Assembly (NCBI GenBank): GCA_949288145.1
Contig: CASEJD010000175.1
Span: 1-18,277, forward strand
Direction of reading: 5' to 3'
DNA length: 18,277 nucleotides
DNA from: an uncultured Coriobacteriia bacterium
GTDB lineage: Bacteria; Actinomycetota; Coriobacteriia; Coriobacteriales; Eggerthellaceae
Shown: piece by piece, positions 9,676 to 13,466 of the stretch
How the letters are laid out: every line of letters starts with the position of its first letter
How positions within the stretch are numbered: position 1 is the stretch's first letter
Notes under the pieces: generated by a model
What the model saw: only the letters and a program-made list of their open reading frames with translations
Told to the model about the DNA's origin: nothing
The model's database searches: none
Program-made: the position numbers and the translations under genes

Positions 9676-10974
9676 TTACTCGTTGTCCAGGTCGATGACC
9701 AGGCCGTCCATGATGGTGTTCACCGTGCGCATGGCGCACATCTTGCCGCACATGGTGCACGTGCCCTCGTTGGACGGCGGCGCGCTCTCGAAATAGCGGC
9801 GCGGCTTCACCGGGTCGATGGCAAGGTCGAACATCTCCTCCCACGCCACGCGACGGCGGGCGTCGCTCATGCGGTTGTCCACGTCGCGCGTGCCCGGGAC
9901 GCCCTTGGCGATGTCGGCGGCGTGCGCGGCGATCTTCACCGCCACGAGCCCCTCGCGCACGTCGTCCACGTCAGGCAGGCGCAAATGCTCCGCCGGCGTG
10001 ACGTAGCAGAGGAAGTCGGCACCAGAGGAGGCGGCGACGGCACCGCCGATGGCTGCCGTGATATGGTCGTAACCGGGCGCGATGTCGGTCACGAGCGGGC
10101 CGAGCACGTAGAACGGCGCATTGTGGCACAGGCGCTTCTCCAGCTTCATGTTGGCCGCGATCTCGTCGAGGGCCATGTGTCCCGGGCCTTCCACCATGAC
10201 CTGCACGCCAGCGTCCCACGCGCGCTTCGTGAGCTTGCCGATCTCGATGAGCTCGGCGATCTGGGACGCGTCGCTGGCGTCGTAGCCCGAGCCCGGGCGC
10301 ATGGCGTCGCCGATGGATATGGTCACGTCGTGCTCGTGCAGGATCTCCAGCACACGGTCGTAATGCTCGTAGAACGGGTTCTCGTTGCCCGTGGCCTCCA
10401 TCCAGGCGAAGATGAGCGACCCGCCGCGCGAGACGATGTTCGTCAGGCGACCGGTCTCCTTGAACGACTCGATGACGCGACGGTTCATGCCAGCGTGCAC
10501 GGTCACGAAGTCCACACCGTCCTCGGCGTGCGCGCGGATGACGTCGAGGAAGTCCTCCGCCGTGATGTCGACGAGCGCCTTCTCGAGGTAGCCGATGGCG
10601 TCGTACATGGGCACGGTGCCAATCATAGCCGACGAGCGCTCCACGAGCGCGCGGCGGAACTGCTGCGTCTTGCCGTGGTTCGACAGGTCCATGATGGCCT
10701 CGGCGCCCAGCTCGAGCGCAACGTCCACCTTGCGCCATTCCTCATCCTCGTCCATAAGGTCGCCCGAGATGCCCAGGTTCACGTTCACCTTCGTGCGCAG
10801 CCCTTCGCCCACGCCCTCGGGCGAGAGCGAGGCGTGGTGCACGTTCGCCGGGATGGCGATGCGCCCGGCGGCGACCCCGGCGCGAATGAACTCTTCCGAA
10901 CGGCCTTCCTTCTCCGCGACCGCTTTCATCTGGGGCGTGACGATGCCCGCGCGCGCAGCGTCCATCTGCGTCAT
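9676..10974 (-). CDS. thiC: Phosphomethylpyrimidine synthase (radical SAM)
   Basis: [24 protein letters not shown]...VNVNLGIS...TVHAG...IVSRGGS...C-terminal [11 protein letters not shown] Fe-S motif. ATG 10974 is preceded by GAAGGGAG. An alternative ATG at 10995 would lie inside the riboswitch. Confidence 0.92.
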
Positions 10975-10977
10975 GGC

Positions 10978-11078
10978 GACTCCCTTCGTTGGCATTACCC
11001 GTTTCAGGTTCCAAGGGTCGAGGCGATACGGCGCCTCCTCTCAGCCTGCCCGGCGGCACGTAGCCGACTCCGCACGAG
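10978..11078 (-). promoter_or_regulatory. TPP (THI-box) riboswitch in the thiC 5' leader
   Basis: The minus-strand RNA reads GGCUACGUGCCGCCGGGCAGGCUGAGAGGAGGCGCCGUAUCGCCUCGACCCUUGGAACCUGAAACGGGUAAUGCCAACGAAGGGAGUCGCC-AUG. It contains the conserved GCUGAGA, ACCCUUnGAACCUGA, GGUAAUGCC and CGAAGGGA blocks in the correct order. The 3' block overlaps the thiC SD, which suggests translational control. The ends are approximate. Confidence 0.85.
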
Positions 11079-11144
11079 AGCGTCGAAACGGCGCACCGCG
11101 CGAAGCTCGCGCCGCGCGCAAGCTCCCCTGCAAACATGTCGCAC

Positions 11145-11220: not shown

Positions 11221-11256
11221 ATAAAAAAGAGAAAGGGGCGTACCCCTTTCTCTTTA
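11221..11256 (-). terminator. Rho-independent terminator ending the small-ORF transcript and insulating the thiC promoter
   Basis: AGAGAAAGGGG (11228-11238), loop CGTA, then CCCCTTTCTCT (11243-11253). This is a perfect 11-bp stem. On the minus strand it is followed by a U6 tract (A-run 11223-11228 on +). It lies 15 nt past the stop of the 94-aa ORF. Confidence 0.75.
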
Positions 11257-11268
11257 TCGGCTCGCTCG

Positions 11269-11553
11269 CTAATGCAGAGGCCTGTCGGGTTTGTTTCGAG
11301 GAGACAAGCTCGGGTCGATGATCATGTTCGTGTACGGAGCTCCGCACCAACGGCAGGGGTTCGTGACTATCCGCTGGAGCGCGGCATCGTCGTAGGCGTA
11401 GAAAATGTTGCGGCATTTTTTGCAGTACACGCCATAGTAATCACGGTAGGTGTTCCAGCCACCCGACGCTTCGTCAAGCTGCTCATCGGGAATCTCGGGG
11501 CTCTCGGGGACGGCAGGCTCGAAATCGTTGCTGTTCAACTGCTTGTCAGTCAT
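11269..11553 (-). CDS. Small Cys-rich protein (94 aa): acidic N-terminal segment ending in SGG, then a CxxC-x20-CxxC zinc-ribbon-like core; hypothetical
   Basis: The ORF has AAGGAG (11560-11565) 6 nt upstream of ATG 11553, and a terminator follows it. Sequence: MTDKQLNSNDFEPAVPESPEIPDEQLDEASGG|WNTYRDYYGVYCKKCRNIFYAYDDAALQRIVTNPCRWCGAPY... It is a paralogue of the neighbouring 75-aa ORF. Confidence 0.7.
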   Translation of the reverse strand: MTDKQLNSNDFEPAVPESPEIPDEQLDEASGGWNTYRDYYGVYCKKCRNIFYAYDDAALQRIVTNPCRWCGAPYTNMIIDPSLSPRNKPDRPLH

Positions 11554-11648
11554 GCCAATCTCCTTTCATCGTGTTGCTCCCAATTGGATCGAGGACCATG
11601 CCCGGCATCGTCTGAGGCGTGGTCCGCGCACCTCGGTCAGCGCCTTGT

Positions 11649-11876
11649 TTAACGCTCTTCGCGGTAACCGGCTCGTTCCGCACGAATCCTCGCGTCGCAC
11701 TCTCTGCAGAACCACGGCGGCTCGGACATCATGGACGTCTCGCACATGTAATCAGCGCCGCACTTGGAGCATTTGACGTGCCAGACCTGCGCCACAAGCC
11801 TTCCGCCCGACACCTGAGAGAGATCGTCGTTATGCAGGCGCTCGACGCCCTCGGACACGCGCTTGTTGTCTTCCAT
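11649..11876 (-). CDS. Small Cys-rich protein (75 aa): N-terminal segment ending in LSQVSGG, then a CxxC...CxxC zinc-ribbon-like core; hypothetical
   Basis: AGGAGG (11882-11887) lies 5 nt upstream of ATG 11876. Sequence: MEDNKRVSEGVERLHNDDLSQVSGG|RLVAQVWHVKCSKCGADYMCETSMMSEPPWFCRECDARIRAERAGYREER. It has the same architecture as the 94-aa ORF downstream. Confidence 0.65.
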   Translation of the reverse strand: MEDNKRVSEGVERLHNDDLSQVSGGRLVAQVWHVKCSKCGADYMCETSMMSEPPWFCRECDARIRAERAGYREER

Positions 11877-12010
11877 TGCTTCCTCCTTCGGCTGCCTGCG
11901 CCTCCCCTTGTCGAGGTGAGACGCTGTGCTGATGCCTTCATGATTCGCTCAACAACAGGAGGCAGGGTGCATCAAACGAACGAATGCAGGACTGAGGGAA
12001 TGAATGCGGA

Positions 12011-12631
12011 TCAGCGCAGCGGGTAGAAGATGTAGAGCGAGCCTTCCTCGACGCCAATGCGGACAGGCTCGCCTTGGAGTTCGTTGGAAAGGCCGAGCGA
12101 CGTGCGGTTCGTGAGCTCCACGTCGTCCAGGGAATACTTCATGCCGGACTCGAGAACGCCTGTGACCCGGTCGTTGGCGGCGAAGACGGAGACGGTGCCC
12201 GCCTCCACGCCGTCGGGCAGCTCGAAGACGTCGGGCCCGGTCAGCACGCGCACGGCGAAATCGTCGCCGATGCCGGTGATGTAAGGGCCCTTCTCGGAAA
12301 ACTTCGCGAACAGCTGCAAGTTCGCGACCGTGTGGTCAAGGCGCGCCGAGAGACCGCCGTAGACGTAGACCTCGTCGGCATGGCGCGCGAGCGCGCGCTC
12401 CAGCGCGAGCTCCATGTCGCTTTTGTCCTTCTCCTTCGGGAAGCGCGCGATGCGCGGGAAGCGCGGCACGTAGCCCAGGGAGTCGAAATCGCCCATGACC
12501 ACATCGGGCTTCACGCCGATCGCCTCAAGGTGCGCGAACCCGCGGTCGACCGCGATCACGTAGTCGAAGCTGCGGCGCAGGAAATCATCGGCGTTGAAGT
12601 CGACGGCGCCCACCAGCGCGCACGTTTTCAT
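12011..12631 (-). CDS. thiN: Thiamine pyrophosphokinase
   Basis: MKTCALVGAVDFNADDF...YVIAVDRGFAHLEAIGVKPDVVMGDFDS...KEKDKSDMELAL...VYVYGGLSARLDHTVANL...GMKYSL...SNE are TPK catalytic and thiamin-binding domain blocks. ATG 12631 is preceded by AGGGGAG. The track extension to 12856 is rejected. Confidence 0.85.
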   Translation of the reverse strand: MKTCALVGAVDFNADDFLRRSFDYVIAVDRGFAHLEAIGVKPDVVMGDFDSLGYVPRFPRIARFPKEKDKSDMELALERALARHADEVYVYGGLSARLDHTVANLQLFAKFSEKGPYITGIGDDFAVRVLTGPDVFELPDGVEAGTVSVFAANDRVTGVLESGMKYSLDDVELTNRTSLGLSNELQGEPVRIGVEEGSLYIFYPLR

Positions 12632-12807
12632 GGTCGCTCCCCTCTCGTCGTGACATCCACGCCGCCCCGCGGACGACGCGCATTCCGGCAGGATACCATA
12701 GCGCGCTGCGCGGCAACGCGCCGCGGCGCTGCGCGCACGGTTCGGCGCGACTGCACGCCAGCGAACGGCGGTGTGCATGCGCGCACGCCAATCCGCCCCA
12801 GAACGTG

Positions 12808-12925: not shown

Positions 12926-13396
12926 CTACTCCGCAGCGGTCTCCTCAGCAGGAGCCTCGGTGGCCTCGGCGGCCTCGGCCTCGACAGCCTCCTCAGCCGG
13001 AGCCTCAGCCTCGGCGGCAGCGGCCTCCTCGGCGGCCTTCGCAGCCTCGACCTCAGCCTTGGCAGCGTACTGAGCGGCGCGCTCGGCCTTCGCAGCGGCC
13101 TTCGCCTCGCGCTCGGCCTTGCGAGCAGCTTCCTTGGCGGCGGCGGCTTCCTTGGCAGCGGCCTTCTTGGCGGCCTCGCGAGCAGCGACGGTCTCGCGGG
13201 CGGCACCGAACTTGTCGGCGAAGCGCTGGACGCGTCCGCCGGTGTCGATCAGCTTCTGGGTGCCCGTGAAGAACGGATGGCAGGCATTGCAGATGTCAAT
13301 GCGCAGCTCCGGCTTCGTGGAGCGGGTCTGGAACGTGTTGCCGCACGTGCAGCGCACGGTGCAGTCAACGTACTCCGGATGGATGCCTTTTTTCAT
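12926..13396 (-). CDS. rpmE: 50S ribosomal protein L31 (Zn-ribbon C+ type) with a 92-aa Ala/Glu/Lys-rich C-terminal extension
   Basis: [64 protein letters not shown] is a canonical 64-aa L31 with the Cys pairs intact. The same frame continues for 92 more residues before TAG at 12926-12928. AAGGAG lies upstream of ATG 13396. Confidence 0.9.
12929..13204 (-). repeat. Low-complexity GC-rich coding repeats (GCC/GCG/GAG/AAG codons) encoding the L31 tail
   Basis: Reiterated gcctcggc / gccttcgcagc / gcggcctc strings on the + strand. Translation: [92 protein letters not shown]. Confidence 0.6.
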
Positions 13397-13466
13397 GGTT
13401 GCTATCTCCTTCAGATAGTGCCTTGGTTTCCGACCAAGGCATAACACAAGCCTTTGCACTATACCA
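13397..13466 (-). promoter_or_regulatory. rpmE promoter (extended -10 TGGTATAGT) and structured 5' leader, a possible L31 ribosomal-protein leader
   Basis: Read on the minus strand: TGG-TATAGT (13458-13466). An 8-bp hairpin GCCUUGGU-CGGAA-ACCAAGGC follows at 13420-13440. A second hairpin, CUAUCU-GAAGG-AGAUAG (13402-13418), holds the SD AAGGAG in its loop and 3' arm. Confidence 0.45.

Follow-up and report, generated by a model that had tools for sequence, protein, structure and literature searches.

Introduction

Small peptides with leaders that end in a double glycine (GG) are known from several systems. Class II bacteriocins and pheromones (TIGR01847; lactococcins, plantaricin A, ComC), which depend on C39 exporters such as PCAT1/CtA, have leaders of ~24 aa on average. 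Nif11-like and NHLP precursors (TIGR03798; prochlorosins; PMC2887384) share with them a 13-residue GG box, as shown by the published logo (Haft et al., 2010, PMC2887384), and such precursors can be encoded far from their maturase and export genes (PMC2887384). Cys-rich cores past a Gly-Gly-type junction are also found in sactipeptides (SkfA/SkfB) and ranthipeptides (SCIFF/CteB, PapA/PapB), and two CxxC knuckles are a feature of zinc-ribbon and rubredoxin-like proteins (Pfam Zn_Ribbon_1; Lar family; rubredoxin). The subject of this study was a pair of small open reading frames (ORFs), ORF1 and ORF2, which join a double-glycine leader to a two-knuckle core. They lie in an 18,277-nt stretch of DNA, hereafter the window, from contig CASEJD010000175.1 of assembly GCA_949288145.1, an uncultured Coriobacteriia bacterium (Eggerthellaceae).

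We read ORF1 and ORF2 as orphan precursor-type peptides of a locus for peptides made on the ribosome and modified after translation (RiPPs), each with a GG leader and a Cys-knuckle mini-protein core. From the sequence comparisons below, the probability of this reading is put at roughly 0.55. It is favoured because the GG and the Leu at position -7 are invariant, because the leader box recurs on unrelated cores, and because sister RiPP- or bacteriocin-type loci were found, including at the same site between thiN and thiC. The first-pass annotation of the window had left two readings open, a precursor or a zinc-binding protein with SGG as a linker; the former is now preferred, with cleavage and export as predicted steps.

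Results and Discussion

Layout of the gene pair

The pair and its signals are arranged as follows. Loci fetched from other genomes carry the letter L.

11649..11876, minus strand: ORF1, 75 aa; leader residues 1-25 at 11802-11876, 50-aa core at 11652-11801
11269..11553, minus strand: ORF2, 94 aa; leader residues 1-32 at 11458-11553, 62-aa core at 11272-11457
11881..11889, minus strand: Shine-Dalgarno site of ORF1, GAAGGAGGA, 4 nt ahead of the ATG; kept in L001 and, before precursor 1, in L027
11559..11566, minus strand: Shine-Dalgarno site of ORF2, AAAGGAGA; its GGAG core is kept in all ORF2 loci
11222..11248, minus strand: intrinsic terminator after ORF2, stem AAGGGG-tacg-CCCCTT followed by CTCTTTTTT, from a scan for stem-loops with T-runs
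11877..12010, minus strand: intergenic region between thiN and ORF1, presumed promoter and 5' untranslated region; homologous to the L027 region before precursor 1
11554..11648, minus strand: spacer between ORF1 and ORF2, 95 nt; the site of inserts in sister genomes

The coordinates, ORF lengths, leader ends, and core sizes of the first-pass annotation agree with the sequence, as do the strong Shine-Dalgarno site that it had assigned to each ORF and the single terminator closing the pair. The terminator call is credible because of its place directly after the ORF2 stop, given that the scan returned 2 sites against 1.6 expected in the region. The stem-loop and T-run of the scan were placed at 11232-11248. 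A terminator-like hairpin also follows ORF2 in its other genomic contexts. A scan of the upstream region revealed no E. coli-type sigma-70 promoter, a consensus type that is uninformative for the phylum Actinomycetota.

The leader of ORF1 terminates in RLHNDDLSQVSGG (GG codons 11802-11807) and that of ORF2 in EIPDEQLDEASGG (GG codons 11458-11463). Both leaders are Cys-free and acidic, with net charges of -3 and -8, respectively, and the predicted cleavage after the GG would leave a core of 50 aa for ORF1 and one of 62 aa for ORF2. The ORF1 core has the knuckles CSKC and CREC, separated by 17 residues, and then a basic C-terminal helix. The ORF2 core starts with WNTYR, has the knuckles CKKC and CRWCGAP with 19 residues between the CxxC motifs, and ends in a Pro-rich tail. 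The two proteins had been described as paralogous. Their architecture is indeed shared, but homology between them is weak (BLASTP E 0.02; hhalign probability 54%, E 1.3e-4), and the hhalign match spans the leader end and the first knuckle only.

Coding status and conservation

The substitution pattern marks ORF1 and ORF2 as genuine coding genes under purifying selection. Ratios of nonsynonymous to synonymous substitution rates (dN/dS) relative to homologues were ~0.10 for ORF1 and ~0.11 for ORF2 (about 0.10-0.12 overall) at dS values of 0.4-0.6; by part, they were 0.18-0.29 in the leaders and 0.03-0.08 in the cores (0.03-0.07 in the ORF2 core).

In six relatives of ORF1, the GG and the residues C36, C39, C57, and C60 were invariant, and a fifth Cys, C45, was variable. 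The relatives of ORF2 span 49-89% identity. Down to the lower end of this range they retain L26, which is the Leu at -7, together with G31, G32, W33, N34, the four Cys, and the TxPC..CGAP knuckle. The N-terminal part of the leader differs in length among them and the GG junction is fixed. No relative had lost the GG while keeping the Cys, the pattern that the first-pass annotation had named as speaking against a leader; both the GG and L(-7) were present throughout.

Word-based searches of 5.8 billion proteins returned only close, unnamed relatives, all from metagenomes or metagenome-assembled genomes (MAGs). When 1.84 billion representatives were searched exhaustively by HMMER with an ORF2 profile, only five small relatives emerged, all with the GG box; neither a leaderless ORF2 homologue nor an annotated family was found among these representatives. 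Three more distant ORF2 relatives (49-57% identity), which keep the reading frame, were added by this search. Altogether, hundreds of metagenome sequences contain homologues of the pair, and the number of genomic contexts is four or more.

Independent frameshift alleles of both genes are frequent in metagenomes. In ORF2, two different lesions at one T-run (T5, and loss of the next A) truncate the protein to 60-61 aa on many independent contigs. The lesion site corresponds to window positions 11401-11406 (ORF2 codons N-I-F-Y), where relatives (L001, L004, and L017) have a T6 run; in the window this run is interrupted (TTTTC; ATTTTCTAC compared to ATTTTTTAC). For ORF1, several independent frameshift alleles were located at different sites (P0008-P0012). 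Such recurrent alleles fit dispensable, bacteriocin-like accessory genes. An independent metagenome contig with 99.99% identity to the window (L013) has both ORFs, both Shine-Dalgarno sites, and the terminator intact.

The leader box compared with described leaders

The leaders of ORF1 and ORF2 have 25 and 32 residues, compared to the class II average of ~24, and end in GG like those of class II. Hydrophobic residues are placed at -4, -7, and -12, with acidic residues between, as in class II leaders: V-4, L-7, L-12, and also V-15 in ORF1, and A/V-4, L-7, and I-12 in ORF2, all of which are kept in relatives. ORF1 thus fits the classical pattern of hydrophobic -15, -12, -7, and -4 plus GG. This strict pattern is not rare in itself, with 16 matches in 152,000 six-frame residues where 4.6 would be expected, so the weight of the argument rests on position, conservation, and context rather than on the motif. 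The TIGR01847 model aligned exactly to residues 12-25 of ORF1, with a score of 12.2 bits (cutoff 15.7; E 0.25). The small tandem genes with a Shine-Dalgarno site each are a further likeness to class II bacteriocins. The cores are different: two-knuckle Cys modules of 50-62 aa instead of hydrophobic, cationic, or amphipathic helices.

The same type of 13-residue GG box links the pair to Nif11-like and NHLP precursors. When compared with the published logo and with 18 cluster-associated leaders, the match was clear for ORF2 and weaker for ORF1. A 14-residue hidden Markov model (HMM), trained only on precursors beside LanM or a radical S-adenosylmethionine (SAM) enzyme, placed the ORF2 family and the peptides of locus L017 (see below) at the top of 1244 six-frame segments. 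Several diverse cores per locus and a possible separation of precursors from enzymes are also shared with the Nif11-like/NHLP group. The ORF1 and ORF2 leaders are, however, short, and the ~70-aa Nif11 domain is absent (no match to TIGR03798 or PF07862). Moreover, their cores are long and conserved among orthologues, and not short and hypervariable.

Neither protein had a match at or above threshold in Pfam, NCBIfam, PHROGs, or PADLOC. Neither these profile libraries nor the literature searched revealed a family with a double-glycine leader on a two-knuckle zinc-ribbon core, in line with the first-pass annotation, which had recognised no described family of this kind.

Peptides with the same plan in other loci

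When related loci were scanned for small ORFs combining a GG box with two CxxC motifs, at least six further proteins with this plan and unrelated cores emerged: ORF-X and precursor 3 of L016, the terminal module of a polyprecursor in L026, and three tandem genes in L017. The common plan is a Cys-free acidic leader, GG, 9-21 aa, CxxC, 17-26 aa, CxxC, and a tail of 4-24 aa. In a joint alignment of ten peptides, only the GG and the four Cys were invariant, and the best-conserved stretch was the leader box ELSDExLDxVSGG. As judged from these alignments, ORF1 and ORF2 are part of a loose superfamily of GG-leader two-knuckle peptides that occur in RiPP- and bacteriocin-type loci of Eggerthellaceae and beyond.

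Locus L017 (12225-18511), from an uncultured Eggerthellaceae MAG, looks like a bacteriocin-type island. A response regulator, an ATP-binding cassette (ABC) ATPase, two permeases with six transmembrane segments, and a histidine kinase are followed by the three tandem GG/two-knuckle genes, and the opposite strand encodes one further GG-leader acidic peptide without knuckles. The gene layout is that of lantibiotic immunity and regulation modules. The leader of peptide 3 matches the Lactococcin family at 4e-4, which, like the immunity-type ABC transporter and the two-component system, resembles class II bacteriocins. The GC content of the island is 0.55-0.59, compared to 0.64-0.73 in the flanking genes. 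In L026 (2992-3732), a 246-aa polyprecursor consists of four successive leader-like modules with the GG boxes EEVTGG, EDVVGG, EEVRGG, and DNVAGG; a two-knuckle core, GG|...CPKCGG...CEDCGW, comes after the last module. The gene is located upstream of a radical SAM/SPASM enzyme (64% identical to that of L016/L027, described below), with one small gene between.

The thiN-thiC site across genomes

The nearest genome matches of the window are the chicken-gut Eggerthellaceae MAGs Candidatus Aveggerthella stercoripullorum and Candidatus Aphodovivens avicola. In the window, the pair lies between thiN (upstream) and thiC-thiD (downstream), with rpmE nearby. The housekeeping neighbours reported earlier, thiN and rpmE, are correct, and thiC was identified as an additional flank.

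In the Aveggerthella loci L016 and L027 (the longer of the two), the same site contains, on one strand, three GG precursors with Nif11-like leaders and Cys-rich cores, a radical SAM/SPASM enzyme, ORF-X, ORF2, and then thiC. ORF2 is the last gene of the array, 0.4 kb downstream of the enzyme. The L016 precursors scored 19-29 bits with TIGR03798 (cutoff 32.3), and one of these Nif11-like-leader precursors is itself a two-knuckle peptide. The L027 precursors are degenerating, with Cys to Arg changes and leader deletions. L027 and the window are collinear at 81-88% identity, from rho by way of metG and rpmE to thiN and again over thiC and thiD, and differ only between thiN and ORF2. In the BLAST alignment, window positions 11883-12643 correspond to L027 6403-7164. 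The 134-nt region 3' of thiN is homologous up to the start codon, which opens ORF1 in the window and the Nif11-leader precursor 1 in L027. The metagenome contigs L029 and L030 show a third version, namely thiN, an ORF1 with 79% identity, a terminator plus a palindrome, precursor 1, and precursor 2. Taken as a composite of the three versions, the order would be thiN, ORF1, precursors 1-3, radical SAM/SPASM enzyme, ORF-X, ORF2, thiC.

In the window and in L013, ORF1 is joined directly to ORF2 and the ~2.8 kb interior is absent. Positions 11555-11630 of the spacer have no homologue in any fetched locus, and neither a deletion scar nor repeats were found there. The interior may have been deleted in the window lineage or inserted elsewhere. 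The first-pass annotation was right in stating that no C39 exporter, immunity gene, or modification enzyme is present in the window. For the modification enzyme, this absence masks the context, since the window represents the version of the locus without the radical SAM/SPASM cluster interior.

A 57-nt near-perfect palindrome, AAAGGGACGGGGTAAATGGGCGGGG...CCCCGCCCATTTACCCCGTCCCTTT, is located between ORF1 and precursor 1 (L016 1-57, L029 1511-1567, L030 693-749), and a half-copy lies 3' of the ORF2 stop (L016 3595-3614, L027 10304-10323). The element is absent from the window. Its copies are putative gene-cassette borders, and it may be an element similar to repetitive extragenic palindromes (REP) or miniature inverted-repeat transposable elements (MITE) with a part in the rearrangements.

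In Aphodovivens-type genomes (L001-L012, e.g., L001 7043-10186), ORF1 and ORF2 are found in other loci and bracket three genes. One encodes an XRE-HTH/Zn_ribbon_2/TipAS regulator, in which the TipAS domain has an antibiotic-recognition annotation; the other two encode a further XRE regulator and a 225-aa protein with a cytidine-deaminase fold. In some of these genomes, HipBA or the L017 island lies just downstream of ORF2, which marks the site 3' of ORF2 as a likely recombination hot spot. Across the compared contexts, ORF1 and ORF2 behave as bookends for variable inserts, and the radical SAM enzyme accompanies them in only some of these contexts.

The radical SAM/SPASM enzyme of the sister loci

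The enzyme of L016 and L027 is a 469-aa radical SAM/SPASM protein whose best relative in the PDB is the sactipeptide enzyme SkfB (4.8e-11). The L016 protein matched no curated maturase family or equivalog, and Pfam detected neither a RiPP recognition element nor a PqqD domain in its N-terminal 97 residues. The clade comprises more than 1000 sequences. GG-leader precursors were found beside the enzyme in all four further contexts examined, and in three of these (L018, L019, L023-L025) its gene stands directly downstream of one for a LanM lanthipeptide synthetase; 1-7 Nif11-leader precursors accompany them, and there is no exporter within 10 kb. The hosts are Clostridia-like contigs and the Coriobacteriia MAG GCA_018368455.1. 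The pairing of LanM with the radical SAM enzyme suggests hybrid lanthipeptide/radical-SAM products. The literature searched contained neither a description of the Eggerthellaceae cluster nor a characterisation of this radical SAM/SPASM clade.

Cys-rich cores past a Gly-Gly-type junction and a SkfB-related enzyme beside family members (L016, L027, and L026) resemble the sacti- and ranthipeptide systems. The present system differs from them in that its enzyme falls outside the curated maturase families, that the Cys form paired CxxC(G) knuckles of the metal-binding type instead of spaced donor Cys, and that the maturase, present in sister genomes, is missing from the window.

Predicted zinc-ribbon character of the cores

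The first-pass annotation had described the cores as zinc-ribbon-like. The four-Cys knuckles on which this rested proved invariant, but no curated or structural match was significant. The best curated zinc-ribbon match was PF13240 with 14.8 bits (cutoff 25), and PDB profile matches of the zinc-ribbon type were weak (E ≥0.05). AlphaFold2, run on a shallow alignment, predicted a disordered leader and a compact core (residues 41-80; predicted local distance difference test, pLDDT, 81-86) for ORF2. Rubredoxins and MCM zinc ribbons were the top Foldseek matches of this core, with a rubredoxin probability of up to 0.96 at a non-significant E value of ≥0.1. The ORF1 model was poor (pLDDT 54) and was discarded. 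The ORF2 model and its matches support, as a prediction, zinc-ribbon or rubredoxin-like units as the cores. The two CxxC knuckles, the predicted beta-hairpin, and the top structural matches are shared with described zinc-ribbon and rubredoxin-like proteins; unlike these, neither ORF reaches the threshold of any model, and none of the weakly matching models or structures has a double-glycine leader or a link to a RiPP locus.

Proposed role of the leader and fate of the core

As precursors, ORF1 and ORF2 would use the leader box (hydrophobic -4, -7, and -12, acidic residues between, and GG) as a handle for a leader-dependent enzyme encoded elsewhere, namely a C39-type peptidase/exporter, perhaps with a maturase in addition. 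The Cys-knuckle core would be set free by cleavage behind the GG. Expression of the pair in the window would be driven by the regulatory region that in Aveggerthella drives the first precursor. Recognition, cleavage, and export of the core are predicted steps, and the Cys may be metal-bound, disulfide-bonded, or crosslinked. A radical SAM enzyme probably does not modify the peptides in this genome, unless a copy is encoded elsewhere.

A wider proposal, possible but tentative, is that the GG-leader two-knuckle peptides (ORF1, ORF2, ORF-X, L016 precursor 3, the L026 terminal module, and the L017 trio) constitute an undescribed class of RiPPs or exported peptides whose core is itself a mini-protein of the metal-binding type, CxxC(G)...CxxC(G). 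Crosslinks between the knuckle Cys might be made by the radical SAM/SPASM clade, which has more than 1000 members and is often a partner of LanM; alternatively, the core might leave the cell as a metallopeptide that serves in metal capture or redox functions, or as a disulfide-locked antimicrobial. ORF1 and ORF2, with their short leaders, would be serviced in trans.

Alternative explanations

Several observations weigh against the precursor reading. Among the orthologues, the core is under tighter constraint than the leader, which is the opposite of a classic hypervariable RiPP core and agrees with a folded protein. Both the CxxCG knuckles and the rubredoxin-like prediction are what one would typically see in a metal-binding domain of the cytoplasm. 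TIGR01847 did not match ORF2 and scored ORF1 below its cutoff, and the 14-residue Nif11-type leader HMM did not pick up ORF1. A C39 peptidase ABC exporter was found neither in the window nor in any of the 31 fetched loci; in the examined ORF1/ORF2 contexts other than the sister radical SAM loci, no C39 exporter, maturase, or immunity gene was located within 10 kb. Finally, the Aphodovivens-type arrangement, in which the pair brackets genes without RiPP enzymes, means that the radical SAM cluster could have inserted between pre-existing genes. Most of these points are shared by the main rival explanation, according to which ORF1 and ORF2 are cytoplasmic zinc-ribbon or rubredoxin-like proteins, e.g., metal-binding adaptors or regulators, with a disordered acidic N-terminal tail, an SGG linker, and an incidental likeness to RiPP precursors. 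The two knuckles 17-19 residues apart (partly CxxCG), the compact ORF2 core with its rubredoxin and MCM hits, and the weak zinc-ribbon matches in Pfam, NCBIfam, and the PDB are what such proteins would show, and helix-turn-helix (HTH) regulators, a deaminase, and HipBA are their neighbours in many genomes. We nevertheless consider this explanation doubtful. A linker would not keep L(-7), the hydrophobic residue at -4, the GG, and the junction GG|WN over 49-89% identity, and the 13-residue box is found on at least eight unrelated cores as well as on Nif11-domain leaders beside LanM or radical SAM enzymes. Furthermore, ORF1 occupies the slot and the regulatory region of a RiPP precursor, and the recurrent frameshift alleles speak against a housekeeping role.

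Compatible with the precursor reading, and in our view unlikely, is the idea that the pair consists of stranded relics: genuine precursors left functionless but undecayed after deletion of the cluster interior, including the maturase. L027 has the ~2.8 kb interior that the window lacks and L029 has its beginning, the neighbouring L027 precursors show decay of their own, and frameshifted ORF1 and ORF2 alleles are common in genomes without a nearby radical SAM cluster. However, the window and L013 have both ORFs, each Shine-Dalgarno site, and the terminator in intact form, the slippery T-run of ORF2 is interrupted in the window, and intact copies are also found in Aphodovivens-type genomes, where no radical SAM enzyme adjoins them; a deletion is, moreover, only one of the two possible directions of change. 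Next to nothing speaks for spurious ORFs in GC-rich intergenic DNA. High-GC DNA does give many long chance ORFs, and the two proteins have no family annotation, but dN/dS ratios of ~0.1 at dS 0.4-0.6 refute this explanation, and the conserved Shine-Dalgarno sites and terminator, the homologues in many metagenomes and several contexts, and the preserved frame in relatives with 49-57% identity also argue against it.

Neighbouring genes and RNA elements

The remaining annotated features of the window are listed below.

10964-11139, minus strand: thiamine pyrophosphate (TPP) riboswitch upstream of thiC, past the ORF2 terminator; 46.2 bits compared to an Rfam gathering score of 54.3, E 1.3e-7
12926-13396, minus strand: rpmE (L31), start MKKGIHPEY, ~156 aa; C-terminal extension of ~85 aa, rich in Ala, Glu, and Lys
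13406-13440, minus strand: L31-Coriobacteria leader RNA directly upstream of rpmE

As its score falls below the Rfam gathering score, the TPP riboswitch escapes detection under default settings; a Coriobacteriia variant that is divergent or contains an insert is the probable reason. With its own riboswitch, thiC lies beyond the terminator, which makes the ORF1/ORF2 pair a separate unit without a sequence-based link to thiamine. A thiamine-related role of the pair was rejected on this ground and because ORF1 and ORF2 occur in unrelated loci in other genomes. The possibility of phage or plasmid cargo was likewise dismissed, as no relatives were found in viral contigs or plasmids, and a defence-system origin was unsupported. 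In the rpmE product, the resemblance to canonical L31 is presumably limited to the first ~70 residues.

Implications

As no biosynthetic enzyme is encoded nearby, cluster mining anchored on such enzymes would miss ORF1 and ORF2 in this genome; as precursors, the two would illustrate how such genes can persist, orphaned and without annotation, among housekeeping neighbours. The three versions of the thiN-thiC site (the window, L016/L027, and L029/L030) provide a natural comparison for the dependence of these genes on a maturase. If the precursor reading is true, double-glycine leaders would also process folded mini-proteins of the zinc-ribbon type in gut Actinomycetota, and the peptides would supply a set of substrates for a large radical SAM/SPASM clade of undefined chemistry.

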